Notes under the pieces: generated by a model
Told to the model about the DNA's origin: nothing
Database searches by the model: none
What the model saw: the letters and a program-made list of their open reading frames with translations, nothing else
Source: Candidatus Eiseniibacteriota bacterium
GTDB lineage: Bacteria > Eisenbacteria > RBG-16-71-46 > JABDJR01
Length of the DNA stretch: 64,000 bases
Assembly: GCA_963783375.1 (NCBI GenBank)
Contig: CAWANH010000028.1
Span: 1,728,001-1,792,000, forward strand
Reading direction: 5' to 3'
Made by a program: the position numbers and the translations under genes
Shown here: one piece after another, positions 40,301 through 60,796 of the stretch
Layout: each line of letters starts with the position of its first letter
How positions within the stretch are numbered: position 1 is the stretch's first letter

Positions 40301-40466
40301 GCAGAAAGCGGCCCCGGGCCTCGGGATCGGCGGCCAGGGCGGGGGAGAGGAACTTGAGGGCCACGGTGCGGCCGAGGACGGTGTCGTGGGCTTCCACGAC
40401 CTCGCCCATCCCTCCCGCGCCCAGGGAGCGGATCAAGCGATAGTGGGAGACGGTTTCCGGTTTCAT
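37396..40466 (-). CDS. Ser/Thr kinase - STAND-type ATPase - TPR protein (~1022 aa after removing two extra bases near 38190 and 38140)
   Basis: GAGGMGEV, VALK, HRDMKPAN, DFGLA, APE; GPGGAGKSRL, VLDNCEHL, LDGIPLALELAA; the TPR frame LHEESL..SRRLGD / EAASLCELG joins ORF 37396-37902. Confidence 0.88.
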
Positions 40467-40527: not shown

Positions 40528-41985
40528 TCACCGCAGGACGACGAGTCGGACGGTGCTCCGCCGGGCCGATGTTACCGCAGTCGCGAAATAGATGCCCGAA
40601 CCGAGCACGCGCCCCGCGTCGTCCCGACCGTCCCAGGTGAAGACGCGAAGACCCGCCTCGACCGGGCCGTCGTGGAGGGTGCGGACGATGCGTCCCTGGA
40701 GATCGTAGATGCGGAGGCGGAGGGGCCCCGAGGCGCCGGCCTGAACCTGGAGGGTCCCGGGGCCTCTCATCGGGTTGGGGCTGGCGGAGAGAACGACGGC
40801 GGTGGGCCCGGGAGCGGGAAGGTCTCCGACTCCGGTCTGCTCCCCCACGCCGTAGGCGTAGTCCATGGACCCGTCGGTTTCGTTGTACACGCCCAGGTTG
40901 GGAAGCCCCTGGGGGTCGAAGGCGATGGAGCTGAAGCGTCCCACGTTTCCCGCGGTGAGCGGGGTGTTGTAGATCCAGGTGCCGTTGAAGCGCGCGGCAT
41001 AGCGCAGGTCGCCCTGGGCCCGGTCGTAGTAGAGGACGTGGGGCCACCCGCCCTGGCCGCAGGCGATGCTGCAGCCCTCACCGAGGTCCCCCGCGCCGTC
41101 CACCGTGAGCACGGTCCACGGACCGCCGGGGGTCTCCCGCGACGCCACCTTGAGATCGAGGTGGGTGACGTCCTGGTAGGCGATGTAGGTCGCCTCTTCG
41201 AAGGAGGCGATGGCGACGTTCCGCCCCACGTCCCCGATGCTGTCGATCCGCGCGGTGCGCCAGGTGCTCCCGTCCAGCCAGGCGTACTTCAGGTCCCGGC
41301 GGTCCAGGTCGTAGTAGGCCACCTCGACGCGCGGCTTCACGACCAGGGCGGTATAGAGCCCCACCGTCCCGTCCACGTCCGGATAGGTAAAGCTCCAGAT
41401 CCCTCCGGGGGGCTTGGTGGCCACCTTGAGCCCCGGCCGGGTGGCGTCGAAGTAGGAGATCAGGATCGTGCCTCCGCCGGTGACCCCGATCGAGGTGTAC
41501 TGCCCCACCGAGCCCGACTGGTCCACCACCTCCCGCCTCCACTGGCCGAAGGTGGAGTCGAACCATGCGTGTTTCAGGTTCCGGTTGTAGGAATCGTAGT
41601 AGGAGAAATGCGGGGTGCCGTCGAGGGCCAGGGCCATGGAAGCGTAGAAACCGGTGGACGGGCTTCCGTCCACGGTGACCGTCGACCAGGCACCCGCCCC
41701 CAGGGGAGACGGATTGGTGGCGTACTTCAGGTTCTGGTTCCCGTCGGAGATTCCGTCGTAGCGGAAGTACCCCAGGTGGAGGCGGCCGAACGGGTCGATG
41801 CGCAGGGTGCAGAACTGGCCCGGGCTGTTCCCGTTGGAGTCCACCGTCACCTCGTTCCAGTCCCAGGCGACGGCCGGAGCCGCGGTGACGAGGGACAGAA
41901 GGCAGACGACGGCAGCGCGTCGGAGGAGCGAGCGGGCCGGACTCCGGTGCGGACCCTTGGCCAGGCGCTTTCGAAGGAAGGTCAC
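40528..41985 (-). CDS. Secreted beta-propeller-like repeat protein with FlgD-Ig/T9SS-like C-terminal domain
   Basis: Signal peptide ending AVA; ~7 repeats W..VD..G.VG.Y.S......P..SYYD....LK.A; PNP...IYDLQGR.VR.L...WDGRD..G....SGIYF; start uncertain. Confidence 0.85.
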   Translation of the reverse strand: MTFLRKRLAKGPHRSPARSLLRRAAVVCLLSLVTAAPAVAWDWNEVTVDSNGNSPGQFCTLRIDPFGRLHLGYFRYDGISDGNQNLKYATNPSPLGAGAWSTVTVDGSPSTGFYASMALALDGTPHFSYYDSYNRNLKHAWFDSTFGQWRREVVDQSGSVGQYTSIGVTGGGTILISYFDATRPGLKVATKPPGGIWSFTYPDVDGTVGLYTALVVKPRVEVAYYDLDRRDLKYAWLDGSTWRTARIDSIGDVGRNVAIASFEEATYIAYQDVTHLDLKVASRETPGGPWTVLTVDGAGDLGEGCSIACGQGGWPHVLYYDRAQGDLRYAARFNGTWIYNTPLTAGNVGRFSSIAFDPQGLPNLGVYNETDGSMDYAYGVGEQTGVGDLPAPGPTAVVLSASPNPMRGPGTLQVQAGASGPLRLRIYDLQGRIVRTLHDGPVEAGLRVFTWDGRDDAGRVLGSGIYFATAVTSARRSTVRLVVLR

Positions 41986-42385
41986 GGCGGCTTCCCGATC
42001 GACGCCGGACGGAACCGTGGCCCCGAGCGTCGACCCGTTGGATGTTCGGGCTCCCATTCTGCCGGAGCCATAGACAGGTGGAATGCAATTCTACCATGGG
42101 GACGGAGCGCTTCGATGCGGCGGCTACGGGCCCGGAGGCTTCGGTTGACCCGGGGTCCGAACCTGTCACTTCGGCCCATTGGCGCTGGAGATTGGATGGT
42201 AGAAATGCCGACAGTTCTTTGAGAAATTTTGTAAAGCCAGCCAACTTAATCTTCGACTACCGGAATCGATCGATGATACTATCTGCCATGAGTCAAAACT
42301 GAGCGACAAGCCTGTTGTCATTTGCTGTAGATGAACTTAACCGACATGGAACCTGCTGTTTCCGGGCGGTGAATTGTAATTGAAC

Positions 42386-42698: not shown

Positions 42699-45600
42699 AT
42701 GTGTAGGCGTCTCACGCGCAGCTCCAGTTCGATTCTGACCGGATGCGCGATGCTCATGCTCCTGTTCCTCGTGGTCGGGGCGGTGCCAGCCTCGGCCGAC
42801 AACGGGGCGGTTCCTCCGGCGTTCGGCGGCGTCACCGCCGCCATGGTTCGGACCAACGCCCAGCAGATCCAGTACGACCCGCCGTTGGACGTATTCGGGA
42901 ACGGCGGGTCGTGTCCCGACCCGACCAATTACGGCTTCGACTACGGCGACAGCGTCTACGTCTGGCTCGCGCCGAGCGGGGACCTGTGGTGGGTGATCGA
43001 AACCCACGGAAACGTCGGGGACTCCAATCAGGACGGCGGTTACGACACCAACACCCCCGATTGCGGGGGCCATCCGGGCTGCGTCAACACCGAGGCCGAC
43101 GCTTTCAACAACATCTTCGCCTCGGGGGTGGAATCGGTCACCATCGGGGTCGATCGCGACTGCAACGGGGTCAACGACCTCCGCTTCACCCTGACCGGCG
43201 CCGGTGACCGCGCCGCGGACGAGGTCCGGGTCACCCTGGACGCGATGACCAACTACTTCAACTCCACGCTGGGTGAGCAGGGAACCGCCTGGAGCGGCGA
43301 CCCCATCCAGGTGGGCCCGGACGCGGTCTGCGTGGTCCAGCGGAACGGCGCGGTCATGATCAGGATCCCGGATTGGCAGAAGTACTTCCGGGACCCGAAC
43401 ACCAACGCTTTCTTCGCCTCTCCCACCGTCTTTTCCTGGCTGGTGGACTCGGGCAACAACTCGGACTTCTACACCGAGGACACCGTCGTCGGTCTCTTCG
43501 ACGTGTCCGCTCCCAACATCTCCATCGACAAGCAGGCCAATCCGACCCTGGTCTGCACGACGGGGGACTCCACCCGGTTCACGGTGACCGTGACCAATAC
43601 CGGAAACACCCCGCTCACCAACGTGCAGCTCACCGATGTGCTGCCCGCTGGGCTGACCTACGGAAACGCCTACATCGACGACCCCACTCTTCCCCTTGGG
43701 GCACCGACGGTTCTCTCGAACAACCTGTCCTGGGGCTCATTCTCGATGGAGCCCCTGGAGTCCCGGACCATCTCCTACCGGGTGCTTACCGATGGATGCT
43801 CGGGGACGGAGGCCAACCAGGCGGTGGTCACCGCCGAGTTCAACTCGGACTGCCTGCCGCTTCCCAGCGGCCTGCGCGAGGAGAGTTCGGCCCAGGTGAC
43901 CTGTGCGGAACCGGGGATCTCGGTCACTCCGCCCGCCGACAGCCGGCTCTGCGTCCTCTCGCCGGTGTCGCTGACCTTCGTGGTCACCAACACGGGTAGT
44001 CACACCGAGGACCTGAACTTCACCGGAATGTTCGACGGGTCGCCGGCCACGGTTGCTCCCACGTCGCGGGCCGGCGTGGCCGCCGGGGACACCGTCCACG
44101 TGGTCCTGACCGCGGTCATGCCCGGAACCTGCGCCGGGGACCTCACCGCCCAGGTGTCCGCCTCCGGCGACATCCCCGGGCTCACGAACTGCAGCGCGGC
44201 GGACAGCGCCCTGGCCACGGTGCAGTGCTCCGAGCCCGGGGTCACGGTGACCCCGCCCACGGACCTGACCGCCTGCGTGGACACCCCCCTCAACCTGGAG
44301 TTCGTGGTGACCAACACCGGGAACTCCACCGAGAACCTGACCTTCAGCGGGATGTTCGGGGGATCGCCGGCGACGGTGAACCCGGCGTCGCGGAACGGCC
44401 TTGCCGCCGGGGACACGGTGCACGTGGTGGTGACGGCAACGATGCCGTCGACGTGCAACGGCGACATCACGGTGTCGGTGACCGCGAACGCCTCGGTGGA
44501 CGGGGTCCAGGGTTGCGACGACTCGGACAGCCAATCCTCGATCGTTCACTGCGCCGACGCGGGGGTCTCGGTAGCCGCTCCGCCCGATACCAAGGCGTGC
44601 GTGGACTCGACGCTTCTGATGACGTTCGTGGTGACGAACACCGGGAACGTCACGGAGGATCTGAGCTTCACCGGGATGTTCGGGGGATCGCCGGTCGCGG
44701 CCAACCCGGCCTCGCGGAACGGCGTTGCGTCGGGGGACACGGTGCACGTGGTGCTGGCCGGAGTGATGCCGGCCCAGTGCAGCGGGGACGTGATCGCCCG
44801 GGTGGACGCCTCGGCAACCATTCCGGGGGTCGACCTCTGCGATGCCGACGCCGCCGACAGCGCCACCGTGCAGTGCGCGGAGGCGGCGGTAGACGTGGCT
44901 CCGGCGGGCCAGATCTTCGCGTGTCTGGACTCGGACATCGCGTTCGAGTACGTGGTGACGAACACCAGCGCGGAGACGGAGAACCTGACCTTCGCCGGTC
45001 TGTTCGACGGATCCCCGGTGACGGCGACCCCGGCGTTCCGGAACGGGGTGGCGGCGGGGGACACGGTGCACGTGATTCTGTCCGGGTCGTGCAGCGGGCG
45101 GACGATCAACACCCAGCTGACCGCCACCGCAGTGGTGGACGGGTTGCCGGGCTGCGAGGCCCAGGACTCGGCGGAGGGGTCGGCGACCTGCGCGACCCCG
45201 GGAGTGGGGGTGACGCCGCCGACGGACATCACGCTGTGCGTGGACAGTCCGGTGGTGCGTGAGTTCGTGGTGACGAACACCGGGAGCGATCCCGAAGACC
45301 TGACGTTCAGCGGGATGTTCGACGGGTCGCCGGCGACGGTGAACCCGACGTCGCGGAACAGCGTGGCGGCGGGGGACACGGTGCACGTGGTGGTGACGGG
45401 GACGATGCCGTCGACGTGCAACGGCGACATCACGGTGTCGGTGACGGCGAACGCGTCGGTGACGGGTCTCCAGGGGTGCACGGACAGCGACACCCAGCCG
45501 ACGACGGTGCACTGCGTGGACGCGGAGGCGAGCGTGACGCCGCCGCCGAACACGAAGGCGTGCGTGGACTCGACGCTTCTGATGACGTTCGTGGTGACGA

Positions 45601-48600
45601 ACACCGGGAACGTGACGGAGGACCTGACGTTCACCGGGATGTTCAACGGGTCGCCGGCCACGGTGAACCCGGCGTCGCGGAACGGCGTTGCGTCGGGGGA
45701 CACGGTGCACGTGGTGCTGACCGGGTTGATGCCGTCCCAGTGCAGCGGGGACGTGACCGCCCGGGTGGACGTGAGCGCGTCGGTTCCTGGCGTGGGAGCG
45801 TGCGACGCGGCCGACTTCGCCACCGCCACCGTGCAGTGCGCGGAGGCGGCGGTAGACGTGGCTCCGGCGGGCCAGATCTTCGCGTGTCTGGACTCGGACA
45901 TCGCGTTCGAGTACGTGGTGACGAACACGAGCGCGGAGACGGAGAACCTGACCTTCGCCGGTCTGTTCGACGGATCCCCGGTGACGGCGACCCCGGCGTT
46001 CCGGAACGGGGTGGCGGCGGGGGACACGGTGCACGTGATTCTGTCCGGGTCGTGCAGCGGGCGGACGATGCGACACCCAGCTGACCGCCACCGCAGTGGT
46101 GGACGGGTTGCCGGGCTGCGAGGCCCAGGACTCGGCGGAGGGGTCGGCGACCTGCGCGACCCCGGGGGTGGGGGTGACGCCGCCGACGGACATCACGCTG
46201 TGCGTGGACAGTCCGGTGGTGCGTGAGTTCGTGGTGACGAACACCGGGAGCGATCCCGAGGACCTGACGTTCAGCGGGATGTTCGACGGGATCGCCGGCG
46301 ACGGTGAACCCGACGTCGCGGAACAACGTGGCGGCGGGGGACACGGTGCACGTGGTGGTGACGGGGACGATGCCGTCGACGTGCAACGGCGACATCACGG
46401 TGTCGGTGACGGCGAACGCGTCGGTGGCGGGGCTCCAGGGGTGCACGGACAGCGACACCCAGCCGACGACGGTGCACTGCGTGGACGCGGAGGCGAGCGT
46501 GACGCCGCCGCCGAACACGAAGGCGTGCGTGGACTCGACGCTTCTGATGACGTTCGTGGTGACGAACACCGGGAACGTGACGGAGGACCTGACGTTCACC
46601 GGGATGTTCAACGGGTCGCCGGCCACGGTGAACCCGGCGTCGCGGAACGGGGTGGCGTCGGGGGACACGGTGCACGTGGTGCTGACCGGGTTGATGCCGG
46701 CCCAGTGCAGCGGGGACGTGACCGCCCGGGTGGATGTGAGCGCGTCGGTTCCTGGCGTGGGAGCGTGCGACGCGGCCGACTTCGCCACCGCCACCGTGCA
46801 GTGCGCGGAGGCGGCGGTCGACGTGGCTCCGGCGGGCCAGATCTTCGCGTGTCTGGACTCGGACATCGCGTTCGAGTACGTGGTGACGAACACCAGCGCG
46901 GAGACGGAGAACCTGACCTTCGCCGGTCTGTTCGACGGATCCCCGGTGACGGCGACCCCGGCGTTCCGGAACGGGGTGGCGGCGGGGGACACGGTGCACG
47001 TGATCCTGTCCGGGTCGTGCAGCGACCGGACGGTGGCGACGTCCTTGACCGCGACGGCGGTGGTGGACGGGTTGCCGGGCTGCGAGGCCCAGGACTCGGC
47101 GGAGGGGTCGGCGACCTGCGCCACCCCGGGGGTGGGGGTGACGCCGCCGACGGACATCACGCTGTGCGTGGACAGTCCGGTGGTGCGTGAGTTCGTGGTG
47201 ACGAACACCGGGAGCGATCCGGAGGACCTGACGTTCAGCGGGATGTTCGGGGGATCGCCGGCGACGGTGAACCCGACGTCGCGGAACGGCGTGGCGGCCG
47301 GGGACACGGTGCACGTGGTGGTGACGGGGACGATGCCGTCGACGTGCAACGGGGACATCACGGTGTCGGTGACGGCGAACGCGTCGGTGGCGACGCTCCA
47401 GGGGTGCACGGACAGCGACACCCAGCCGACGACGGTGCACTGCGTGGACGCGGAGGCGAGCGTGACGCCGCCGCCGAACACGAAGGCGTGCGTGGACTCG
47501 ACGCTCTTGATGACGTTCGTGGTGACGAACACCGGGAACGTGACGGAGGACCTGACGTTCACCGGGATGTTCAACGGGTCGCCGGCCACGGTGAACCCGG
47601 CGTCGCGGAACGGGGTGGCGTCGGGGGACACGGTGCACGTGGTGCTGACCGGGTTGATGCCGGCCCAGTGCAGCGGGGACGTGACCGCCCGGGTGGACGT
47701 GAGCGCGTCGGTTCCTGGCGTGGGAGCGTGCGACGCGGCCGACTTCGCCACCGCCACCGTGCAGTGCGCGGAGGCGTGCGTGAACGTCATTCCGCCCAAC
47801 CCGATCACCGCCTGCGCGGACGCGGCGGTCTCGGCGGAGTTCGTGGTCCAGAATTGCGGGAACGACACCGAGGACATGACCTTCACCGGCCTCTTCCTGG
47901 GGCTTCCGGCCACGGTCACCCCCGCCTCCCGTAACGGGGTTGCCCCCGGGGACACGGTTCACGTCGTGCTCCACGGGGTGATGCCCGCGAACTGCGACTT
48001 CGGCGTGGATCCCATCACGATCCAGGGCGGGGGCGCGGACGTGGGCGTCAAGGCCATCACCATTCCCACCGTGGATCTCTCCGCGGTGGCCACGGTGTCG
48101 GGTCTCGCGGGTTGCGAGTTCCGGGACTCGGCCTCGGCCGACCTGGATTGCGTGAACCCCGACGTCCTGGCCGAGGCGCCCCCGCGGACGACGTTCTGCG
48201 CGGACGCTCCGGTGAGCCTCACCTTCGTGGTGACCAACACCGGCAGCGACCCCGAAGACCTGACGTTCGGCGGGATGTTCAACGGCTCTCCGGCGACGGT
48301 GACGCCGTCCTCCCGGAACGGGGTGGCCGTGGGCGATACCGTACACGTAGTCCTCTCGGCCACGATGCCGGCGGTTTGCGACGGTCCCTACACCGGACGG
48401 GTCATCGTCGCGGCGGCGACCGGTCTGGTCGCCTGCGACGCGGCGGATACCGCGGACGTGCTGGTGGACTGCGCGGAGCCCGGAGTGGACGTCGCGCCGC
48501 CGGATCCCTCCACCGCATGCGCCAGCTCCATGGTGTGGCTCGAGTTCGTGGTGACCAACACCGGGAACCTCGCCGAGAACATGATCTTCGGCGGGTCCTT

Positions 48601-50464
48601 CGGGACGGATCCCGCCACGGTCACCCCGGATGCGCGAAACGGCGTGGCCCCCGGGGACACCGTGCACGTCATGGTGCACGGGGAGCTTCCGGGCAGCTGC
48701 AACGGACCCCTCCAGGCCCGCCTGGCGGTGACCGGCCAGATCGTCGGCGTGGACCTCTGCGCCGCCGAGGACATCGACTCCACCCAGGTCTCCTGCGCCG
48801 GCCCCTGCGTGACCGTCACCGGACCGCCGACCGATGAGGTCTGCCCGGGAAGCGACGTGTGGACCACCTTCGTGGTGGAGAACTGCGGCAACGAGACCTC
48901 GAACCTGAGCTTCACCTCTACGTTCAACGGCAGCCCGGCCGCGCCGGTTCCGGCCTCCCGGAACGACGTGGCCCCCGGGGACACCGTGCACGTGATGATT
49001 CACGGCACCATGCCCGCCGACTGCCAACCCATCCCGGAGCGCCGGGGGTGGTGAACGCGGCCGCGGGCGGCCCGGCGAATCCGCCCGCCGCGGGAGCGCA
49101 GGTCAAGCTGGTGGCCCTGGCCGAGATCGCGGGGACGACCGAGTGCGCGGCCTCGGACAGCGCGTAGCGCCTTCATCCCTGCAAGATCCCGAGCGTCTCC
49201 CTGGTGAAGGACACGTCGCCCGACACGACCGAGACCACTTCCAAGGTCACGATCGTGGTGGAGAACACGGGGAACTCGGTGCTCGACCCGGTCCTGGTGA
49301 GCGACCATCTGCCGTCGGCGCTGGGCTTCGACACGAACCAGATCATCGGCGGGACCTGCGGGGCCAGCCTGGATCACGTCCAGACCGTGGGTGACGTCTC
49401 CTGGGTGTTCTTCAGCGGGTTCTCCCTCGATCCGGGACAGTCCTGCACGATCATCTACGACGTCAATTGCCGGTCCACGACCGGGGAGGCCAGCATCGAC
49501 ACCGCCTACGTGGAGGCCTGGTGCGACGGCACCTTCGGCATCGTCGAGCCGGTGACCGACTCCGACACCGCCAGCGTGGTGTGCCGGACCCCCGGCGAGG
49601 CCTGTCCCCGCACGATCGGGTTCTGGCGTCAGCAGTGCGCGCAGAAGTTGAACGGATCCACCAAGATCTGCGAGGCCGGCATGGAGTCGCTGTGGGTGTG
49701 CGTGATCAATGCCACCGACGTCGTCCAGTGGAAGAAGAACGACGGCAGCTACGAGACGACGGCCAGCCTCCGGACCTTGGGAGGAGCGAACCCGACCGGG
49801 CTGTTCGACGCACTGTGCTCCCAGCTCCACGGTCCTCGTCCGATGACCATCCGCGACATGACCGAACTCCAGTACCTGGGACTCATGCTCAACGTGTGTT
49901 CCTCGGCCATCGCCCGGGGCATTCCGGTGAGCAACTCTTTCGTGGGCACGGTGGGTGAGGCGATCGACGGGATCGAGAACGCCCTCGAACACCGGACCAG
50001 AACCTCGGTTACTGGGAGGGCATCGCGGACCAGATCGACAACGGGATCGGCGTTCTCGCCGCGGAACTGCCCGGATCGAGAACGGGATCTTCAGCAATCT
50101 CCCGGGCTGCAGCGCTGCCACGGTCGGGCAGACCAGGGAGCTCGGGTTCCTGAGCGGGATGACCGAGATGCCCACGATCTTCAACTCGAGGCCGTACCCG
50201 AACCCGGTCTTCTCGGGCCAGACCATCATCCTGGTCGAAGTCCCCGAGGCGATGGGTGTGCGCGACGTGCGGGTCGAGGTCTACGATCTCAAGGGCGCCA
50301 AGGTCCGTCAGCTCTACAGCGCACCCATGAATCCCGGTCGCCACACCGTGAACTGGGACCTCCGCGACGACGGCGGTTCCGACGTGGCTTCGGGGATCTA
50401 CTTCTACCGGGTGGTGGCGGGGGACACCGCAATCACCCAGAAGATGCTGGTCATGCGCCGCTAG
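42699..50464 (+). CDS. Giant secreted Cys-rich Ig-repeat protein, paralog A (~2580 aa; frame broken by several single-base indels)
   Basis: Signal peptide; acidic head domain; DUF11-like domain; 16 modules of ~107 aa (FVVTNTG...SRNGVA.GDTVHV); second DUF11-like domain; CPRTIGFW domain; YPNP...GIYFYR CTD. Indels near 46070, 46290, 49035, 49165-49180 and 49987-50080, located by comparison with sister repeats and paralog C. Confidence 0.85.
44225..47775 (+). repeat. Intragenic tandem repeat, 963-bp unit (3 modules, 321 aa), ~3.7 copies
   Basis: GTGGACTCGACGCT recurs at 44601, 45564, 46529 and 47492 (spacing 963/965/963); near-identical from ~44870. Confidence 0.95.
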
Positions 50465-50482
50465 GACGGCGCGATTGAGGGA

Positions 50483-50513
50483 GGGAACGGAGGGCCTGAG
50501 GGTCCCCCGTTCC
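50483..50513 (+). terminator. Hairpin after paralog A
   Basis: GGGAACGG...CCGTTCCC stem; no strong U tract. Confidence 0.4.
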
Positions 50514-50809
50514 CGGGCCCTTCGAACTCTCCGGACGAGGCTCCGCCCCAGGGCGGGGCCTCGTTCTTTCAGGGACGCGGCGGAATCCGGTCCGGGAGTC
50601 GACCGCTCGAACCGGGGGACCCAAGAGCGAAGCCGACTCCGGTCCATCCCGGGTCCCGAGGCGATGAGGAGTGTGCCGGTATTGAAGGAACCTCGACGCT
50701 CAGGATGCGCGGGCGCCGGTCGCTCCAACACCTGCGGGCTTTCCGCCGCAGGAAAGCCGACGTGGACCCGGCAGTCCGGCCTCATTTGTCTGCGGATCGT
50801 TTCAGGATG

Positions 50810-50934
50810 TAATCATTTGATTACTATCACGGCTAGAAAGGTCATAAGTGATTGGTTTTCGGACGTTAGGTCCCGAATTCTGCGAAATAAATTAGTCAAG
50901 AATATTGACTTTGCCCACCCATTCTTGATATCAA
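50810..50934 (+). promoter_or_regulatory. Paralog B upstream region: IHF sites, palindrome and sigma70 promoter
   Basis: Minus-strand AATCAAATGATTA (50810-50822) matches WATCAAN4TTR exactly; one-mismatch site 50845-50857; AGTCAA-N5-TTGACT at 50894-50910; TTGACT-N18-TATCAA with TG. Confidence 0.6.
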
Positions 50935-51206
50935 TTCAATTCGTTGACAGATAAGCCGCACTTGCAGGGAGGTGCAAGGTCGGGGTTTCGTCGTTGGGCG
51001 ATGCGGATAGCCATGTTGGCGCTGCGATCCGGGAGCGCGGCGCCGAGGGGGGGATCCCCCAGCATCCATCCTGCAATCCCGCCCGTGTCTCTCTCCGGAA
51101 CCCCACTCACCGAGCCCTCCGATCGCGTCTTCCGCTCTTCCGACGCCACCTGCAGGTGTAAGTAGCGCTTCGCGGACCACAGACTTCGCGGATGGAGGAA
51201 ATCACA

Positions 51207-54200
51207 ATGTCGAGCAAACTCATGGGCCTCCGGAGAGCACCGCTCTTCGGCGTCGGCCTCATTCTGGCGGTGGCCATCGCGCTCCTCGGCGCGGGTCCCG
51301 TCTTCGCCAACAACGGGATCAATACCCCGCCGGTCGGCGGCGTCACCGCCGACATGGTTCGGGCGGCGGCCCAGAACATCGTGTTCGATACGGAGGGCGA
51401 CGTCTTCGGCGGCGGCGGCAGCTGTCCCAACCCGGTGAACTACGGCTTCGACTACGGCGACAGCGTCTACGTCTGGCTGTCTCCGGCGGGGGACCTTTAC
51501 TTCGCGGTCGAGATCCATGGAAACGTGGGGGACTCGGACCAGGACGGAGGCTATGACACCGAGGGATCGACCTGCGGTGGGCATCCGGATTGCGTGGCCG
51601 CGGAGGCCGACGCCTTCCACAACATCTTCGCCTCCGGGGTCGAGTCCATCACCTATTCGATCGACCGGGACTGCAACAACGTCTTCGACCTCCGGTTCAC
51701 CCTCACCGGGGCCGGGAACATGAAGGCGGACTCCGTTTCGGTGACCCTGGATTCGATGACCGGCACCTTCGGGGACATCCTGGGCGGACAGGGCACCGCA
51801 TGGGCCGGCGCGCCGCTGCAGGCCGGTCCCGACGGGGTCTGCGTCGTGGCGCGGAACAGCACGGTCGTGGTCAGGATCCCCGACTGGGGCCGCTATTTCG
51901 AGGATCCGGTCACCCACGATCCGATCCCCGGCATCGTGTCCAACATGTTCACCTGGAGGGTAAACTCCGGAAACAACTCGGACAGCTACACCGAGGACGA
52001 GGTTCTGGGGGTGTTCGACACCTCGAACCCCCAGATCGACCTGTCGAAAACCACGTCCAAGAACCAGCTCTGCGGGAACGGGGACACCGCCCGGTTCACC
52101 CTCACCGTGACCAACACCGGGAACACGCCTCTGACCGGCGTCACCCTGAGCGATCAGCTTCCGACCGGTCTGGGCTACAACGATTCCTACATCGACGATC
52201 CGACCAACGCGATCGGGAGCCCGAACGTGGTTTCGGACCTCCTGACCTGGACCCCCTTCGACCTGGAGGTCGGCGGGTCCCGGGTCGTCTCCTACCTGGT
52301 CGTGAGCAATGGGTGCCAGGGCCAGGTGTCGAACGCCGCCGTGGTCCAGGGGACGTTCGACGTGGACTGCCTGGACGTGCCGGTGAACGTGGGTGACCAG
52401 GACGCGGCCACCGTGACCTGCGTCGACCCCGGGGTGTCGGTGACCGCTCCGCAGGCTCAGAGCCTCTGCGCGGGGTCGCCGTGGACGGCTACCTTCGTGG
52501 TCACGAACACCGGCGACGCGACCGAGAACCTCTCCATCGCCTGTACGATCGGCGGCGCGCTCCAGACGCCGGTAGTCCGCAACGGAATCGCGGTGGGGGA
52601 CACGGTCCACGTGGACGTGGCCGGAACCCTGCCCGCGACCTGCGGCTCTCCGATCACCGTGAGCTGTGAGGCTACCGCAACCCTGCCCGGGGTGGATCCC
52701 CAGGCGTGTTCGGACGTCGACAGCGATCAGACCACGGTGAGCTGCACCGCGGCGTGCGTGACCGTGGCCGACGCCCCCAACGACACCGCCTGCGCGGGGA
52801 CGACCCTCTGGATCGAGTACGTGGTGACCAACTGCAACGGCCAGGGCGGCGACGAGAACATGACCTTCTCCGGCATGTTCAACGGATCCCCGACCACGGT
52901 GAGCCCGACCTCTGCCTCGAACGTGGCCGACGGGGACACCGTGCACGTGAAGCTGCTGGCGGTGCTGCCCGCGACGGACTGCAACCCGGCCGGACACCTC
53001 GGCACCCTGACCGCGAACGCGGCCCTGGCCAACGACGCCGGGTGCACGGACTCGGACAGCGGCGACGGACGGGCCTTCTGCGACGTCCCCGACGTGGACA
53101 TCGTGAAGACCACCAGCCCGACCACCACCGACTCCGGCTCCACGGTGACCATCACCGTCACCAACCCGGGCGGCGCGGCCCTCGACCCGGTCCTGGTCAG
53201 CGACCACCTGCCCGCCGGCCTGACCTTCGACGCGGGCCAGACCCTCGGTGGAACCTGCGGCGCGACGGTGGATCACGTGCAGACCGTAGGGGATCTGACC
53301 TGGGTCTTCTTCACCGGGTTCTCCCTGGACCCGGGCGCGAGCTGCACCATCTCCTATGAGGTGGGCTGCGGTCAGTTCGACAACGCGGCCCGCGTGGACA
53401 CCGCCTACGTGAGCGCCTGGTGCGCCGGAACCTCCCAGACCACCGATCCGGTGACCGCGTCGGACACCTCGGCCGTGGTCTGCGAGCGGGAGGAGATCTG
53501 CTGCTGGATGACCACCGGCGGATTCGAGAACGGCGGCTTCAGGTCCGGCAACAAGGACGACAACTTCGGCGGGAACGTGGGTCCGCCCCCCAGCGGGCAG
53601 TGGCAGCACGTCCAGCGGTCCGGGAAGAAGGTCGTCTTCAACTTCCACAGCCACGACGCCCGCGTACGCGCATGCGGGAACGACGGGACCGCCGGTCCCT
53701 GCGTGCCTCGCGGCCACTCCAACTGGATCGAGTTCGGCGGGCCCGGGGCCTACAACCTGGGGAACGGCCCCCGGAAGTACGCTGCGTACTTCACCGCCCG
53801 GGCCGAGGATCACGGGGAGCCGGGTCGTCGCGGGAACCAGAACGGCGGCTGCGGCACTCCGGACTACTACGAGATCACGGTCTGGGACGGCGCCACCAAC
53901 GAGGTCGTGTTCACCGCCTCCGGTCTCCTGGACGGCGGGAACATCCAGATCCGCGACTGCAAGGCCAAGAAGCAGGAGGACGAACCACCGCCGGTCACCG
54001 ACGGTTCCGCCCTGGACGGCTCCGGCAACCTGGGCAGCCTGGAGACCGGACAGGATCTGGGGCTCGCGACCCTGAGGCTTCGGGCCTATCCGAACCCGGT
54101 TTCCCAGGCTCCGACCCTGATCCAGTTCAACGTTCCGTCCCACTTGAGTGGGAGCCAGGTGGACATCTCGGTCTACGACATCACCGGCCGCAAGGTCCGG

Positions 54201-54353
54201 GCCCTGGTTTCCGAGACGATGAACGCCGGTCAGCGGACCGCGAGCTGGGACCTGCGTGACGAGTCAGGAAACGCGGTGGCGACCGGGATCTACTTCTATC
54301 GACTGCGGGTCGGGAGTGAGTCCCTGACCCAGCGGATCCTGGTCATGCGGTAA
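51207..54353 (+). CDS. Secreted Cys-rich Ig-repeat protein, paralog B (1048 aa, intact) with post-COAP-1-like distal domain and CTD
   Basis: GGAGG SD; same head and DUF11-like domains as A; 2 modules; MTTGG...NFGGN...EDHGEPG...DYYEI...GGNIQ; YPNP...GIYFYRL. Confidence 0.92.
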   Translation: MSSKLMGLRRAPLFGVGLILAVAIALLGAGPVFANNGINTPPVGGVTADMVRAAAQNIVFDTEGDVFGGGGSCPNPVNYGFDYGDSVYVWLSPAGDLYFAVEIHGNVGDSDQDGGYDTEGSTCGGHPDCVAAEADAFHNIFASGVESITYSIDRDCNNVFDLRFTLTGAGNMKADSVSVTLDSMTGTFGDILGGQGTAWAGAPLQAGPDGVCVVARNSTVVVRIPDWGRYFEDPVTHDPIPGIVSNMFTWRVNSGNNSDSYTEDEVLGVFDTSNPQIDLSKTTSKNQLCGNGDTARFTLTVTNTGNTPLTGVTLSDQLPTGLGYNDSYIDDPTNAIGSPNVVSDLLTWTPFDLEVGGSRVVSYLVVSNGCQGQVSNAAVVQGTFDVDCLDVPVNVGDQDAATVTCVDPGVSVTAPQAQSLCAGSPWTATFVVTNTGDATENLSIACTIGGALQTPVVRNGIAVGDTVHVDVAGTLPATCGSPITVSCEATATLPGVDPQACSDVDSDQTTVSCTAACVTVADAPNDTACAGTTLWIEYVVTNCNGQGGDENMTFSGMFNGSPTTVSPTSASNVADGDTVHVKLLAVLPATDCNPAGHLGTLTANAALANDAGCTDSDSGDGRAFCDVPDVDIVKTTSPTTTDSGSTVTITVTNPGGAALDPVLVSDHLPAGLTFDAGQTLGGTCGATVDHVQTVGDLTWVFFTGFSLDPGASCTISYEVGCGQFDNAARVDTAYVSAWCAGTSQTTDPVTASDTSAVVCEREEICCWMTTGGFENGGFRSGNKDDNFGGNVGPPPSGQWQHVQRSGKKVVFNFHSHDARVRACGNDGTAGPCVPRGHSNWIEFGGPGAYNLGNGPRKYAAYFTARAEDHGEPGRRGNQNGGCGTPDYYEITVWDGATNEVVFTASGLLDGGNIQIRDCKAKKQEDEPPPVTDGSALDGSGNLGSLETGQDLGLATLRLRAYPNPVSQAPTLIQFNVPSHLSGSQVDISVYDITGRKVRALVSETMNAGQRTASWDLRDESGNAVATGIYFYRLRVGSESLTQRILVMR

Positions 54354-54438
54354 GCGACGGGGCCCTTGGGCCCGTCGGCGATCGGCGGGCGATGCCGGCC
54401 CGGGTCCAGCGCCCGGACCGGCGCCGTCTCGACCGAAT

Positions 54439-54474
54439 CGGGGCGCTCCCTCACCGGGGGCGCCCCGAGTTTTC
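54439..54474 (+). terminator. Rho-independent terminator after paralog B
   Basis: CGGGGCGCTCCC-TCACC-GGGGGCGCCCCG followed by AGTTTT. Confidence 0.6.
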
Positions 54475-54676
54475 CTTCCCCCATCGCAACGTCCCCGAAG
54501 TCGGTCCGTGCCCATTCGAACGCATGGGATCTGAAGGGGGCCGAATCGACGGTTCTCCGACGTCGCCGCGGTCTGACGCGCGGAGTTTCCGACGCTGGCT
54601 GGAGACAGTGGAAAATACTCTGACGTTCTGGAGAGTCTATGTCAACGAATGACTACATGTTCTGCGTGCAAGTCTG

Positions 54677-54766
54677 TAATAAGTTGATTTCAATGGCCGT
54701 TATAACGCCCAGTCTACAAAGTAAATCGTAAGAAAGATTGACTTCGTGGATTTGATCTGATAATTT
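54677..54766 (+). promoter_or_regulatory. Paralog C upstream region: IHF site and sigma70 promoter
   Basis: Minus-strand AATCAACTTATTA (54677-54689) is an exact IHF consensus; TTGACT(54738)-N17-TAATTT with TG. Confidence 0.6.
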
Positions 54767-55033
54767 TTGTGGATCACATCGACTCATCTCACCTCGAGGG
54801 GGGGGTCACCTGAGTCCACGGACGGGGTCGCTTCATTCTCTGCAGTCGTGCGCGGACCGCGCTCATCACCGTTCTATGGGTTCTCCACGGATCCTCCCTC
54901 CCGGCTCGCCTCCGGCCCGCACGGCGGAAACGCCTTGGGTTCCGGAGGGTTGTTTTCAACAGGGCGAGCGGCGCTCATTCCGCCTCGGGAATCGCTTCAA
55001 AGTGGTTCGACCATGCGGATGGAGGAATTGAAC

Positions 55034-58000
55034 ATGTCAAGCAAACGAATCGGCGAGGGTAGGGCTTTCCCGCTCCTCGTCGGGCTCACTATTCTGGCTC
55101 TGGGCTGTCTGGCCACCGCCGGCATGGCCCTCGCCAACAACGGGGTGAATTCACCGGCCGTGGGCGGCGTTACCGCCGACATGGTCCGTGCCGCCGCCCA
55201 GCAGCAGGTCTACGACCCGCCGATGGACGTCTTCGGCAACGGTGGAAGCTGTCCGGACCCCGTGAACTACGGGTTCGACTACGGGGACAGCGTCTACGTC
55301 TGGTTGAGCCCGGGCGGGGACATGTACTTCGCGATCGAGACCCATGGCAACATCGGGGATTCCGATCAGGACGGCGGCTACGATACCGAGACCGCGACCT
55401 GCGGCGGCCACCCGACCTGCGTGAGCGCCGAGGCCGACGCCTTCAACAACGTCTTCGCCTCGGGGGTGGAGTCCGTCACCATCTCCGTCGATCGTGACTG
55501 CAGCGGGACCTCGGACCTGCGCTTCACCCTGACCGGCGCCGGCAACATGCGCGCGGACTCGGTCAGCGTGACCCTGGACGCCCTAACCGGGTTCTTCGGC
55601 TCCATCCTGGGCGGCCAGGGGACCGGCTGGGCGGGGGCGCCCCTTCAGGTCGGCCCCGACGCGGTCTGTGTGGTCCAGCGCGCGGGCGTGGTGGTGATCC
55701 GGCTCGCCAACTGGAATCAGTACTTCCAGGACAACACCCCGGCCCACAACTTCCTTCCCGGTATCTCCCCGACCACCTTCGACTGGATCGTGGACTCCGG
55801 AAACAACTCGGACTTCTACACCGAGGACCTCGTGACCGGCCGGTTCGACATCTCGAACCCGCAGGTCGACCTGGTGAAGTCGGTGTCCCGGTCCCAGATC
55901 TGCGCCTCGGGGGACACCACCCGGTTCACCCTCACCGTGACCAACATCGGGAATACGCCGCTCACCGACGTGATCCTGACCGACCAGCTCCCGGCCGGCT
56001 TGGTCTACGACGACTCCTACATCGACGACCCGTCGAACCCGATCGGCGCGCCGAACGTGGTTTCCAACAACCTGACCTGGACGGGCTTCACCTTCGCCCC
56101 CGGGGATTCCCGCACCGTCTCCTACCGCGCGGTGAGCGACGGGTGCCAGGGGCAGGTGGCGAACAACGCCGCGGTGCAGGCCCAGTTCGACATCGACTGT
56201 CTGGGCGGCCCGGTGGCGGTTGCGGACTTCGATTCGGCCGACGTGACCTGCGTGGAGCCGTGCGTGACGGTATCCGCGCCGGACGCCGCAGAGCCTCTGC
56301 GCCGGGTCCCCGTGGAGCGCGACCTTCGTGGTGACCAACTGCGGAACGGTGACCGAGAACCTCTCCATCGCCTGTACGATCGGCGGCGCGCTCAAGACGC
56401 TCCTGGTGGTCCGGAACGGCATCGCCGCGGGGGACACCGTCCACGTGGACGTCTCCGGGATCCTGCCCGGAACCTGCGGCCCGCCGATCGCGGTGAGCTG
56501 TGAGGCCACCGCGACCCTGCCCGGCGTGGCGCCGCAGGGCTGCTCGGACGTGGACAGCGACCAGGCCACGGTGAGCTGCACCGCGGCCTGCGTCACCGTG
56601 GCCGACGCGCCGGCCGACTCCTCCTGCCCGGGAACCGACCTCTGGCTGGAGTACGTGGTGACCAACTGCAACGGCCAGGGCGGCGCCGAGAACATGACCT
56701 TCACCGGCGTGTACAACGGCTCTCCGGCCACGGTGAGCCCCACCTCGGCCTCGAACGTGGCCGACGGGGATACCGTGCACGTGAAGCTCCTGGCGTCCCT
56801 GCCGGTGGACTGCAGTCCCAACGGCTACCTGGGAACCCTGACCGCAAACGCGGCCTTGGCCACCGACGCCGGGTGCACGGACACGGATTCCGGTGACGGC
56901 CGCGCGTTCTGTACGAATCCGAACGTGGACATCGTGAAGAGCACGAGCCCCACCACCACCAGTTCCGGGTCCACGGTCACGCTGGTGGTCACGAACCCGA
57001 GCGGTGTCACCCTCGATCCGGTCCAGGTCAGCGACCACCTGCCCCCGGGGATGCTGTTCGATGACACCCAGACCATCGGCGGCACCTGCCTCGCCTCGGT
57101 GGATCACGTGACGGACCTGGGCGGGATCGTGTGGGTCTACTTCACCGATTTCACCCTGGGCCCCGGCCAGAGCTGCACCATCACCTACGACGTGGACTGC
57201 GGTGAGTTCGACGGCCAGGCCAGGATCGACACCGCCTATGTCGACGCCTGGTGCGACGGCACCTTCGGAATCGCCAACCCGGTGTCCGATTCCGACACCG
57301 CGGTGGTGGTCTGCGAGGGTGGCCAGGCTTGCCCGCGGACCATCGGCTTCTGGCGCCAGCAGTGCGCCCAGAAGGGGAACGGCTCCACCAAGGTCTGCGA
57401 GGCCGGGATGGAGTCCCTGTGGGTGTGCGTGATCAACGCAACCGACGTGGTGCAGTGGAGGCTCAACGACGGCGGTTACGAGACCACCGCGTACCTCCGG
57501 ACCCTGAGCCCGTCGGATCTCTTCGCGCATCTCTGCAGCCAGCTCCAGGGACCGCGGCCCATGACGCTTCAGAACATGGCCGAGATCCAGTACCTGGGGC
57601 TCATGCTGAACTACTGCTCCGAGGCGGTCTCGGGCGGCATTCCGGTCCAGAACTCGTTCACCGGCACGGTGGGCGCGGCGATCGACTCGATCGAGGCCGC
57701 GATCAACAGCGGCGTGAACATCGGCTACTGGAAGACGGTCGCCGACGAGATCAACAACGGGATCGGCGTTCTCGCCCCTGCCTGCGACAACGAGAGCACC
57801 TTCTTCCGGAACCTGCCGGGCTGTGCGCTGGACGCTCCTGGGTCCGGACAGACCGACATCCTGAAGGAAGGGTTCGATCCGAATGCCCTGGTGGCGCGGT
57901 CCTATCCCAACCCGGTCCTGCCGGGGAGCGGAACCGTGATCTACTACCAGATCCCGCCGGACATGGGCCGGACGACGGTGGAACTCAGCCTCTACGACAT

Positions 58001-58175
58001 CGCCGGACGGCTGGTGAAGCGGCTGGTCTCCGAAGGCAGGGATCCCGGCTCCTACACGGTCAACTGGAACCTCACCGATCAGACGGGGAGCCAGGTGCCG
58101 TCGGGGGTGTATTTCTACCGCCTTCGGGCCGGGTCCGAGGTCTTCACCCAGAAGATGCTGGTGGTTCGCCACTAG
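55034..58175 (+). CDS. Secreted Cys-rich Ig-repeat protein, paralog C (~1046 aa; one extra base near 56288)
   Basis: Head, DUF11-like domain and 2 modules as in B; CPRTIGFW domain as in A; CTD. Removing one base restores APDAQSLC (B has APQAQSLC). Confidence 0.9.
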
Positions 58176-58222
58176 GCCGAGTTTCGATCCGTATGGATTG
58201 AAATCATGCGCAACCCGGAATG

Positions 58223-58258
58223 GGGGGTCGGCACCGTGCCGACCCCCTGTTTCTTCTT
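58223..58258 (+). terminator. Rho-independent terminator
   Basis: GGGGGTCGGC-ACCGT-GCCGACCCCC followed by TGTTTCTTCTT. Confidence 0.8.
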
Positions 58259-58636
58259 GCAAACTTTCCCGCCAACCCTGAACTTTACCCGCGTTCAGCG
58301 GGTATCCAAATACGGTCCCTTGCGTCTTTCCGTACAAGGATCACCAACGGCGCAAGCGGCTTCGGTCCGGATTTGAGCCCGAAGCACCCAAGGAGGGCCG
58401 GTGCCAGGGGGCCAGATCTACAGCGGCAAAGAGCCGAACGCTTTCGGCAACTTGCTGCATCATAACAACTTGAAGGTGACGCGGTCTCTTCGTGGGCGCG
58501 ACGGGGGCTGCGTGCTATTTCCCAAAGGGCGAGCGTATCGCACGCCCTTGACTCCAGGTCCAGCCTCGCGGACCGAAAACCTGGTTGCGTGGGTTCCGTC
58601 CCAAGTAATCGATCAAGTCCCTGCGAGGAGATCCAA

Positions 58637-60796
58637 GTGAGAAACGCTCTGTTGGGACGGATCCGTGTATCCGTCGGTTTGGCGGCTCTTGCCGGCCTGA
58701 TCGGGGCGGCCGTCGCGCTCGGCGCCCCCGCCCCCGCCCCCGCCGACGGTAAACTCGATTCCCGACTTCAGGCTCTGCTGGATCACGCCGGCGTCCCGGC
58801 CGCTCCCGGCATGGTGGACCAGGACGGGACCGTGGAGGTGATCGTCCGCGGCGACCTCGACCGCGAGTTCCTGAAGGGGCTGGGCGCCGAGCCTCAGACC
58901 GTCCTCTCCGGTCTCGTAACCGCCCGGGTCCCGGTGGCCGCCCTTCCGGCCCTCGTCGCCTCGAGGCGGGTTTCCCGCATCCAGGCCGGGTCCGGAATGG
59001 AGTATCTCCTCGACAAGAACCAGGTCGAGACCGACGTCGAATCGATGTGGGGAGGAGCACCGCCCCAGTACCCCACCGGCGGCTACACCGGCCAGGGCGT
59101 GGTCATCGGCATCGTGGACACCGGGATCGACCGCAATCACCTCGACTTCAAGAACGCCGACGGCACCACCCGCATCCGCTACATGTGGGACCACACCGGG
59201 GGCCCGGAGCCTCCGCCCGCCGGCTACACCTACGGCCAGGAGTGGACGGCCTCGGAGATCAACGCCGGCCAGTGCATCGAACAGGATGCCGTCGGTCATG
59301 GGACCCACATCGCCGGGGTGGCGACCGGGAACGGCCGGGCCACCGGGAACGGGGTCCCGCAGTTCACCTACGTGGGCATGGCCCCCGAGGCGGACATCAT
59401 CGCGGTCAAGCTGGACTTCCCTTCGGATGTGGAGGTCATCGACGGGGTCTCCTACATCTTCCAGAAGGCCGACCAGCTCGGCGAGGACGCGGTGGTGCTG
59501 CTGGCGGTGGGCAAGCAGTCGGGGCCCCACGACGGCACCGATCCCCTGGATCTGGCCATCGACGCCATGACCGGTCCGGGCCACCTAGTGGTGGCCGCCG
59601 CCGGCAACGAGGGCATGAACAAGATCCACTCCGAGATCGCGATCACTCCCCACCAGACCACGAGCACGACCTTCAACGTCCCGAGCTACGGCTACGCCAG
59701 CAACCCGTTCATCGCGGTGGACGGATGGCTGACTCAGGGCCCGACCATGTCGGTGACCCTTACCACGCCGTCGGGATACAACCTCGGTCCCATCGCCGTC
59801 GGGCAGGTCAACGTCTGGAGCAACGCCGACGGTTCGGTCCGACTCGAGGTTCCTGCGGGGAGCCCCACCCAGTTGCACCTGTCGGTCAGCAATCCGGGGG
59901 CGGGGACCTGGACGGTAAGGGTCAACGCGGGAAATTCCAGCTCCGGCACCATGGACTTCTGGATCTCGGATTACGACCTGGCCGGCTCCAAGCCCGAGAT
60001 GGTCCAGGGGCAGACCTTCGCCAAGTGCGTCGCGTCGCCGGCCACCGCGACCAATGTCGTGGCGGTGGGGGCCTACACCACCAAGAAGTACTGGACCGAC
60101 CAGTACGGCGGGACGAAGTTCTATCTGAGCGCGGTCATGGACCAGATCGCCGACTTCTCGAGCCGGGGCCCCCGGCGGGACGGCGTCCTGAAGCCGGAGA
60201 TCACCGCGTCGGGCTACGGCGTGGCCTCCGCCCGCTCCACCGCCGCCACGATCTACTCGGGTTACATCGTGTTGGACAAGGTGCACTGCATGATGTACGG
60301 CACCAGCATCGCCGCGGCCTCGGTCGCGGGGGCGGCCGCACTCCTGCTCGAGGAGTTCCCGGGACTCGATCCGTCCTCGCTGAAGACCCTCCTCCAGGGG
60401 CGGGCCAACGTGGACCAGTACACCGGCGCGGTCCCCAACCCGACCTGGGGATACGGGAAGCTCTGCTTGACCGCCGCCACCACCGCGGTGGGGGACACCG
60501 GACCGGGGACCGGGCTTCTGACCCGCATGCTGGGCGCGCCCTATCCGAACCCGACCGGGGCCATGACCCGGGTGCCGGTGAACCTCGACGTCGCGGGGGA
60601 CGTGACGGTCTCGGTGTACGACGTGACCGGCCGCACGGTGAGGGTCCTCTATTCCGGCTCCATGGACGCGGGCCCGCATCTCCTGAGCTGGGACGGCACG
60701 AATCAGATGTCCCAGGCCGTTCCTTCGGGGAGCTACTACGTGGTCGCGGTGAATCGGACGGCTCGCGAGAGTCGCGCGGTTCTGATCCTGCGATGA
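58637..60796 (+). CDS. Secreted S8 subtilisin-like protease with inserted beta domain and FlgD-Ig/T9SS-like CTD
   Basis: Signal and pro region; IVDTGID, HGTHIAG, AAGNEG, FSSRGP, GTSIAA, WGYGK; YPNP...SGSYY; SD AGGAG. Confidence 0.93.
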   Translation: MRNALLGRIRVSVGLAALAGLIGAAVALGAPAPAPADGKLDSRLQALLDHAGVPAAPGMVDQDGTVEVIVRGDLDREFLKGLGAEPQTVLSGLVTARVPVAALPALVASRRVSRIQAGSGMEYLLDKNQVETDVESMWGGAPPQYPTGGYTGQGVVIGIVDTGIDRNHLDFKNADGTTRIRYMWDHTGGPEPPPAGYTYGQEWTASEINAGQCIEQDAVGHGTHIAGVATGNGRATGNGVPQFTYVGMAPEADIIAVKLDFPSDVEVIDGVSYIFQKADQLGEDAVVLLAVGKQSGPHDGTDPLDLAIDAMTGPGHLVVAAAGNEGMNKIHSEIAITPHQTTSTTFNVPSYGYASNPFIAVDGWLTQGPTMSVTLTTPSGYNLGPIAVGQVNVWSNADGSVRLEVPAGSPTQLHLSVSNPGAGTWTVRVNAGNSSSGTMDFWISDYDLAGSKPEMVQGQTFAKCVASPATATNVVAVGAYTTKKYWTDQYGGTKFYLSAVMDQIADFSSRGPRRDGVLKPEITASGYGVASARSTAATIYSGYIVLDKVHCMMYGTSIAAASVAGAAALLLEEFPGLDPSSLKTLLQGRANVDQYTGAVPNPTWGYGKLCLTAATTAVGDTGPGTGLLTRMLGAPYPNPTGAMTRVPVNLDVAGDVTVSVYDVTGRTVRVLYSGSMDAGPHLLSWDGTNQMSQAVPSGSYYVVAVNRTARESRAVLILR

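Follow-up and report, generated by a model that had tools for sequence, protein, structure and literature searches.

What do three long tandem genes with the same type of N-terminal domain build on the surface of an uncultured Eisenbacteria bacterium? The genes are paralogous and lie on the + strand at 42699-50464, 51207-54353 and 55034-58175 of the window, the 64,000-nucleotide stretch of contig CAWANH010000028.1 (Candidatus Eiseniibacteriota bacterium) analysed here. Our reading, to which we give a little better than an even chance, is that they encode anchored fibrillar adhesins, in which a Ca-stabilised and putatively glycan-binding tip domain (the head) sits on a cross-linked rod of graded length. 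The surface-rod architecture as such is well supported, which does not extend to the ligand outside the cell, most probably a glycan, that the head would bind. The class of protein, adhesins of the fibrillar or periscope kind whose stalks contain DUF11/CLIPPER domains, is known; new are the family to which the head belongs and the stapling that the stalk seems to have.

Gene 2 is the only one of the three with an unbroken open reading frame here. It encodes, in this order, a signal peptide, the head, a DUF11 domain, two immunoglobulin-like (Ig) modules, a second DUF11 domain, a WMTTGG domain and a C-terminal domain (CTD). Pfam recognizes two DUF11 stretches and a FlgD_ig/Por_Secre_tail C-terminus, in agreement with the two DUF11-like domains plus CTD of the original prediction, which had been made from the sequence alone. 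A tblastn search of the 4.73-Mb genome with the head returns exactly three copies. The domains are as follows (T9SS, type 9 secretion system; indels, insertions or deletions; pLDDT, predicted local distance difference test; pTM, predicted template modelling score).

42699-50464, + strand: gene 1, about 2585 residues, broken by indels that are likely sequencing errors; intact orthologue P0008
42699-42797, + strand: signal-peptide-like N-terminus of gene 1, basic, hydrophobic and ending in PASA, judged by eye
42798-43511, + strand: head 1, 238 residues, DOMON/CBM9-like through homology to the modelled head 2
43512-43901, + strand: first DUF11/CLIPPER domain of gene 1 (Pfam DUF11; Lys-Asp-Asn triad)
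43902-49179, + strand: stalk of gene 1, 16 CARDB/ASH-like Ig modules with about 4 Cys per module
44874-47764, + strand: modules 4-12 of gene 1, three near-identical 963-bp three-module units
49180-49602, + strand: second DUF11/CLIPPER domain of gene 1 (Lys-Asp-Asp), without the A-B loop Cys
49603-50120 (end approximate), + strand: TxGFW-type pre-CTD domain of gene 1 (CPRTIGFWRQQC...), no Pfam/NCBIfam family
50195-50464, + strand: T9SS type-A-like/FlgD-Ig CTD of gene 1
51207-54353, + strand: gene 2, intact, 1048 residues, alternative start at 51192
51309-52028, + strand: head 2, 240 residues, modelled (pLDDT 83, pTM 0.86)
52029-53501, + strand: stalk of gene 2, with DUF11 from 52029, modules from 52419 and 52743, DUF11 from 53079
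53502-54000 (end approximate), + strand: WMTTGG-type pre-CTD domain of gene 2, weak post-COAP-1 match
54087-54353, + strand: CTD of gene 2 (TIGR04183, 37.6 bits, cut-off 23)
55034-58175, + strand: gene 3, about 1045 residues, one indel near 56285
55136-55858, + strand: head 3, followed by DUF11 from 55859 and modules from 56249 and 56577
From 56910, + strand: second DUF11 of gene 3, then TxGFW domain from 57330 and CTD from 57903

The mature heads measure 238-241 residues, the originally given length of ~270 including the signal peptide. Heads 1 and 3 are 65% and 73% identical to head 2, so that the prediction of the same head on all three proteins holds for the type of head and not for its identity; because of this divergence the heads may differ in ligand. 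The motif GDSDQDGGYDT, expected in all of them, reads GDSNQDGGYDT in gene 1. The heads are acidic as predicted (29-33 D+E against 7-9 K+R), and Pfam, NCBIfam and PDB sequence searches assign them to no family; no NCBIfam model matched the head in 65 members. A weak Pfam beta-propeller match (E 0.13) was rejected, as was a TrwJ match that falls in the signal-peptide region. With a profile built from 8 heads the number of representatives is 101 at E<=0.001, falling to 31 at 1e-10 and to 13 at 1e-30; upon iteration 105 of 106 members were kept, and P0087 was lost as a false member. Conservation falls almost wholly on Gly, Asp and Glu (GFD48, GxxGD75xD77GD79G, E112, D119xxCxGxxD127, D225GxxE229D230). 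Among 106 aligned heads, positions D48, D75, E112, D225 and D230 are 97-100% D/E, and D77, D119, D127 and E229 are 89-92% D/E. Judging from these acidic motifs and from the relatives of the fold, the conserved Asp and Glu residues are likely Ca sites.

The model of head 2 (65 sequences) has 11 strands. Among 48,161 chains its six best structural matches are all DOMON/CBM9-like, and each aligns ~152-166 residues, nearly the whole domain. They are the glucodextranase C-domain 1ulv (Z 9.2, 159 aligned, root-mean-square deviation 3.8), CBM74 7uwu (Z 8.1), EbdC 2ivf (7.6), CBM9 1i82 (7.4), 4jpq (7.3) and NxrC 7b04 (7.0), with generic Ig folds following from 6.6. Foldseek gives its best query TM-score to 4jpq (prob 0.94, E 0.013). 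We take the 1ulv C-domain, 4jpq and NxrC 7b04 to belong to the DOMON-like group. CBM9 and 2IVF are grouped as DOMON-like in the accessible part of PMC4846438, and CBM74 is grouped with CBM9 in that of 10.1101/2022.11.20.514607, according to which both bind sugars and carry putatively structural Ca2+. The modelled Ig-like beta-sandwich superposes on CBM9 and EbdC, the six matches spanning Z 7.0-9.2, as the DOMON/CBM9-like guess of the original prediction had anticipated. The head is likely, on the strength of this model, a Ca-stabilised DOMON-like binding module outside the heme-DOMON, CBM9 and Glucodextran_C families. Heme-type DOMON membership was ruled out by the lack of conserved Met/His axial ligands (across the 106 heads no alignment column has M >=20%, and H occurs in two sparsely filled columns only), and CBM9 proper by the lack of a conserved two-Trp clamp. 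Membership of Glucodextran_C (PF09985) was ruled out as well: Pfam has no match at E<=0.5 for the window head, nor is the family among the 25 listed; hhalign gives E 0.051, and the genome holds 0 Glucodextran_C matches. Leads only are the Atlas assignments of the head to Glucodextran_C (0.80) and of the homologue P0083 to CBM9_1 (13% of members, 0.87) and Glucodextran_C (0.82).

The stalk behind the head contains 16, 2 and 2 modules by a count of the DTVHV motif, as predicted. Those of gene 1, parsed by pattern, have 105-112 residues and 4 Cys each; one module was split by the pattern, two have ~20-residue inserts and a few have 6 Cys. A two-module model (pLDDT 96, pTM 0.79) consists of two Ig sandwiches with almost no linker, and the fold resembles CARDB (3idu, Z 10.4), another guess that held, and ASH/PapD-like domains, with numerous other Ig folds close by. 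The first DUF11 domain has a Lys-Asp-Asn triad in all three genes, kept in 47 of 52 homologues, with a spacing of 35/60 compared with 33/58 in 9IFR, which is a solved CLIPPER isopeptide domain in the part of PMC12617251 available. From this triad we infer an isopeptide bond in the first DUF11 domain; in the second, Asp replaces the triad Asn.

The cysteines of the head and the Ig domains covary. Strand-A and strand-B-end Cys are both present in 51 and both absent in 67 of 118 domains. All 61 heads whose following DUF11 domain has an F-G loop Cys contain Cys122, compared with 5 of the 30 others; 12 of 103 heads were left out as truncated within DUF11. Independent pairs number ~7 agreeing and 0 opposite (median p 0.016), and the close homologue P0021 has neither Cys122 nor the F-G Cys. 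In 26 chosen full-length proteins, with domain starts entered by hand, 78 of the 80 internal Ig domains have the A-B loop Cys, as against 6 of the 25 terminal ones; the four unparsed domains (3 internal, 1 terminal) all have the Cys by eye. Terminal Ig domains retain the F-G, E-F and mostly the G-end Cys, and those that retain the A-B Cys have an extra linker Cys (both by eye). This covariation suggests that each domain is disulfide-stapled to the next.

Stalk length varies between paralogues and between species-level orthologues. The 963-bp triplet units of gene 1 share 94-98% DNA identity per module between copies, and P0008, an intact 1939-residue orthologue of gene 1 with an 83% identical head, has 10 modules, two triplet units fewer. 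The module number of 16 is the figure of a single assembly and could be wrong by one triplet; none of the listed short-read contigs spans the repeat.

The TIGR04183 CTD is also recognized in P0008 (31.8 bits), and the CTD profile matches 108 open reading frames of the genome, 105 of them at the C-terminus. The genome contains SprA (432.8 bits, cut-off 200) and four PorV matches over the cut-off, the best of which has a PorU-like gene immediately upstream. These T9SS-like genes lie on contig C29 at 137748-141955 (PorU-like next to PorV) and 765042-771388 (SprA, with what looks like a frameshift close to the N-terminus). The PorU of Porphyromonas cuts type-A cargo and links it to anionic lipopolysaccharide, as described in the accessible part of PMC11205867. 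With a C-terminal T9SS type-A signal as the anchor, the N-terminal head is likely the cell-distal tip and the pre-CTD domain the base; the "distal domain" of the original prediction would then be cell-proximal. The surface-layer role also suggested there found no support: the proteins are long rods among 108 CTD-bearing reading frames, and the P0008 stalk has a sub-threshold "putative S-layer" match (24.4, cut-off 110).

The proposed sequence of events would begin with Sec export, followed by SprA/PorV translocation, CTD removal and C-terminal attachment, which would leave the N-terminal head at the tip. An isopeptide bond would form in the first DUF11 domain. Disulfides within domains would join the E-F loop to the G-end, and strand A to the strand-B end where these Cys are present, while a staple between domains would run to the F-G loop of each following domain from the A-B loop of the Ig domain before it, or from head Cys122. 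Stapling would make the rod stiff and resistant to tension. If each domain is taken to measure 4 nm, its length would be ~70-80 nm in gene 1, with 18 Ig domains, and 15-20 nm in genes 2 and 3, with 4 each. The reach of gene 1 would change in three-module steps through recombination within the 963-bp repeat. The Ca2+-stabilised head, held away from the cell, would bind a ligand outside.

Several observations weigh against this picture of T9SS-anchored, stapled and glycan-binding rods. The top Z of 9.2 is only modestly over a typical background best of 7-8; the DOMON-like call is made, despite this moderate Z, because all six best matches share one superfamily. Foldseek gives nothing for the head model at E<=0.001. 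Compared as a profile with 19 Glucodextran_C domains, the head scores poorly (E 0.051, probability 1%, 52 columns), a smaller head alignment gives no match, and the N-terminal DPxGD...GFDl motif is the sole part aligned. No column of the head alignment exceeds 39% Trp (the top two have 39% and 32%), so a glycan ligand would need another mode of binding, perhaps Ca-mediated. Some DOMON domains bind neither sugar nor heme, according to the accessible parts of PMC4846438 and PMC10691727. Five heads have Cys122 and no partner Cys, and two internal DUF11 domains of P0022 are without the A-B Cys though the next module has the F-G Cys; another Cys could stand in for it there. Covariation can also be mimicked by loss of a whole partner domain. 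The PorU-like match of 376.7 is below the cut-off of 420 and its catalytic Cys was not located, and GldM and GldN were not found in the genome in a search whose controls were silent too, and which did not include GldK and GldL.

The distribution of the head is broader than this locus. Head-spanning matches occur in at least 15 of 206 genomes of the phylum (this one included), with one more partial, and in 4 of 4 of the genus; the alignment used matched 58 of the 206 in all, most only through its DUF11 overhang, and 37 weak matches fall outside the listing. Pattern scans of the genome and of metagenome contigs added just 1 and 2 loci. The close homologues P0117 and P0131 are named Ca. Eisenbacteria. 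In relatives the head is mostly N-terminal. Behind it come DUF11, SdrD_B, PKD, Big_5 or other stalks, or else the anchor itself. The anchors are FlgD/T9SS-type, PEP-CTERM-like, VPLPA-like, Loki-CTERM-like (these last three mostly below cut-off) or a short TWGxIKxxY tail. Such a tail, [ST]WGx[IVL]KxxY, closes the small secreted proteins P0050, P0060, P0066, P0083 and P0113 and is also found at L014:13770-14594 and L015:12952-13986; it is a candidate further sorting signal, for which Pfam gave nothing at the two loci searched. The distant homologues P0035, P0049, P0070, P0048 and P0077 have 2 or 3 heads in tandem.

Head genes often stand in tandem pairs or more, and their paralogues cluster by lineage, which points to several duplications independent of one another. 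On the contig of P0008 each of the three window genes has its own counterpart, and the long-then-short order of module numbers recurs in genomes G001 (5/1) and G003 (4/1). At L013:6651-14802 in G003 (contig C1), two tandem paralogues with 4 and 1 modules have near-identical heads and share 1605 identical 3' nucleotides. Clustering by lineage would suit kin-specific binding, and it belongs to the case for a different function, in which the head is a Ca2+-dependent self-binding domain or matrix scaffold and the rods link neighbouring cells or brace extracellular polymeric substances, as in flocs. The absence of an aromatic clamp, the many conserved acidic residues and the presence of the head on PEP-CTERM-like proteins fit this function too, and P0081 aligns over 258 residues with the flocculation protein PepA (37.9 bits). 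This score is, however, well under the cut-off of 80, the alignment includes signal and anchor, P0081 is a marginal member (E 2.6e-5), and the closest folds of the head are carbohydrate-associated domains. We hold self-binding to be unlikely.

It is less likely still that the carboxylate clusters of the head serve to bind metal ions or the surface of minerals, for particle attachment or metal capture. The two DxDxDG-type loops (positions 75-80 and 119-124) and DGxxED are the only strongly conserved polar features, and the net charge is strongly negative. Yet acidity is common among secreted proteins, and the Ca sites of CBM9 and CBM74 are putatively structural in the accessible text of 10.1101/2022.11.20.514607.

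Specificity might instead reside at the other end of the stalk. The pre-CTD domain comes in two unrelated types, TxGFW in genes 1 and 3 and WMTTGG, which is post-COAP-1-like (E 0.0016, 18.8 bits, cut-off 40), in gene 2, and is exchangeable between the two. A fourth paralogue at L012:7239-10679 (G002, contig C45) is an exact chimera of 1964 nt of the gene 3 orthologue and 1500 nt of the gene 2 orthologue; it is either a recent recombination that swapped the pre-CTD domain or a short-read misjoin. The array is followed by a peptidase gene.

58589-60796 (start uncertain), + strand: S8 peptidase with CTD, a recurrent neighbour of head genes

The peptidase, possibly a maturation or release protease, has an atypical serine motif, GTSIAAASV. 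In 9 of the 16 genomes with a full or partial head match, a relative of it is encoded no more than ~6 kb away from a head gene. One could suppose that the proteins are released, or are two-ended bridges in which the exchangeable pre-CTD domain confers specificity and the head is a generic cap. The interchangeable types of this domain, the 53-88% identity of the TxGFW type across 25 proteins, the head found in 25 of its 30 carriers, the neighbouring peptidase and the sub-threshold PorU match would all suit such proteins. The S8 family is encoded, however, by 76 of the 206 genomes, most of which lack a head gene, and the association may reflect shared descent or clustering of secreted genes. Moreover, many homologues, P0019, P0020, P0044, P0063 and P0083 among them, consist of head plus anchor only, which makes the head the minimal functional unit. 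Release or bridging accordingly seems improbable to us.

Genes 1 and 3 are broken by single-base indels, at ~46070, 46291, 49038, 49167/49177, 49987/49996 and 50066/50076 in gene 1, where the one at 49167/49177 yields an in-frame TAG at 49165, and at ~56285 in gene 3. Contigs from short reads of related populations do not show the indels. At 49038, 50066 and 50076 the coverage comes solely from the more divergent run X4, and inside the repeat the covering contigs may belong to other repeat copies. Because of these contigs, and because intact homologues exist, the breaks are likely sequencing errors rather than decay. That genes 1 and 3 are decaying pseudogenes, or that the long stalk is an assembly artefact, is hardly credible: about nine indels and the lack of a listed contig spanning the repeat speak for it, and against it stand the indel-free short-read contigs, the intact P0008, an independent assembly in which gene 3 is intact (P0003, 98-99.8% identical) and gene 2 is frameshifted (P0010), and repeat copies that differ by 2-6%, the distinctive third of which is covered by a contig of run X2.

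The remaining features of the locus lie between and around the genes.

50533-50567, + strand: terminator-like hairpin after gene 1 (z = -2.8)
50807-50940, + strand: AT-rich region before gene 2, containing TTGAC words and one IHF-like word
54438-54468, + strand: terminator-like hairpin after gene 2 (z = -4.0)
54669-54770, + strand: AT-rich region before gene 3, containing TTGAC and one IHF-like word
58217-58255, + strand: terminator-like hairpin after gene 3 (z = -6.1)

A downstream hairpin for each gene had been predicted and is present. Of the promoter-like region predicted for each gene, AT-rich patches (34-44% GC in 100-nt steps) remain as a feature of composition, those of genes 2 and 3 containing TTGAC words, and a sigma-70 scan found 0 sites. 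Candidate words of the IHF consensus lie at 50810-50822 and 54677-54689 upstream of genes 2 and 3. An Rfam scan gave no match. At 40528-42057 on the - strand lies a CTD-bearing repeat protein whose body has no Pfam family and is propeller-like by eye; its homologues stand beside head genes in L013, L063, L065 and L076. Further upstream of the array (33989-40466, - strand) are a Tricorn-type protease and a Ser/Thr kinase-STAND-like NTPase gene. The stretch at positions 1-3609 of the small contig C9 of the same genome bin is 96.5% identical to window 58387-62000 and is likely a strain haplotype left in the bin.

How do the anchored adhesins that we favour compare with known systems? They are long proteins with repeated stalk domains, a signal peptide and a C-terminal anchor, as fibrillar adhesins are. 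In the accessible parts of PMC12617251 and PMC9210967, fibrillar adhesins with DUF11/CLIPPER stalks likewise have a signal peptide, an N-terminal unannotated domain, an Ig-like stalk with DUF11/DUF7507, the Lys-Asp-Asn triad, disulfides beside isopeptides and a C-terminal sorting domain. Here, however, the head matches no Pfam/NCBIfam family, and DUF11 merely caps a stalk of Cys-rich CARDB-like modules; in those same parts disulfides are reported as co-occurring in domains and not as stapling from junction to junction. Periscope proteins such as SasG, Rib and Sgo_0707 share highly identical DNA repeats, a variable-length stalk and an N-terminal domain, as far as the accessible part of PMC8201768 goes. 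Of the three genes only gene 1 has such a repeat, and it differs in that its unit comprises three different domains (963 bp), its tail is of T9SS type, length also differs between tandem paralogues of one genome, and the variation of orthologues is known here between species only. With the DOMON-like superfamily (PF09985/1ULV, 1I82, 7UWU, the heme domains EbdC/NxrC) the head shares its predicted beta-sandwich topology and acidic loops suited to Ca2+, and with Glucodextran_C the DPxGD...GFDl motif. It differs in its 8-15% identity to the four non-heme matches, in having no Met/His and no Trp pair, and in not being attached to a glycoside hydrolase or redox enzyme. "Choice-of-anchor" is an NCBIfam name for a surface domain that occurs with several unrelated sorting signals; the head behaves alike, although no NCBIfam model matches it. 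Finally, type-A cargo of Bacteroidota has the same TIGR04183 CTD, SprA, PorV and PorU-like gene in the accessible part of PMC11205867, while the host here belongs to the Eisenbacteria, with GldM and GldN undetected, as were the controls. A literature search that did not cover the supplements of PMC12617251 and PMC9210967, which could list related clusters, found no account of the head or of the architecture, and this agrees with the original prediction of a family of surface proteins not yet described, in which one type of head is carried by stalks of unequal length.

A bolder form of the adhesin reading is possible and, as a joint claim, doubtful. It holds that the head is a new DOMON branch of neither heme nor Trp-clamp type that binds through Ca2+-loaded carboxylates and is carried on many anchor types across lineages. 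Here it would sit on an isopeptide-capped, length-tunable periscope, fully stapled from head to base and exported by a T9SS without the canonical Gld motor.

The head is a new buildable domain family of ~100 clusters at 50% identity with a predicted fold. As a candidate binding domain it concerns both the uncultured Eisenbacteria and PEP-CTERM-like proteins found elsewhere, and its proteins add a case of type IX-like cargo outside Bacteroidota. The stapling, if true, would be a simple way to build, from modules, protein rods that are stiff, withstand force and have a set length.

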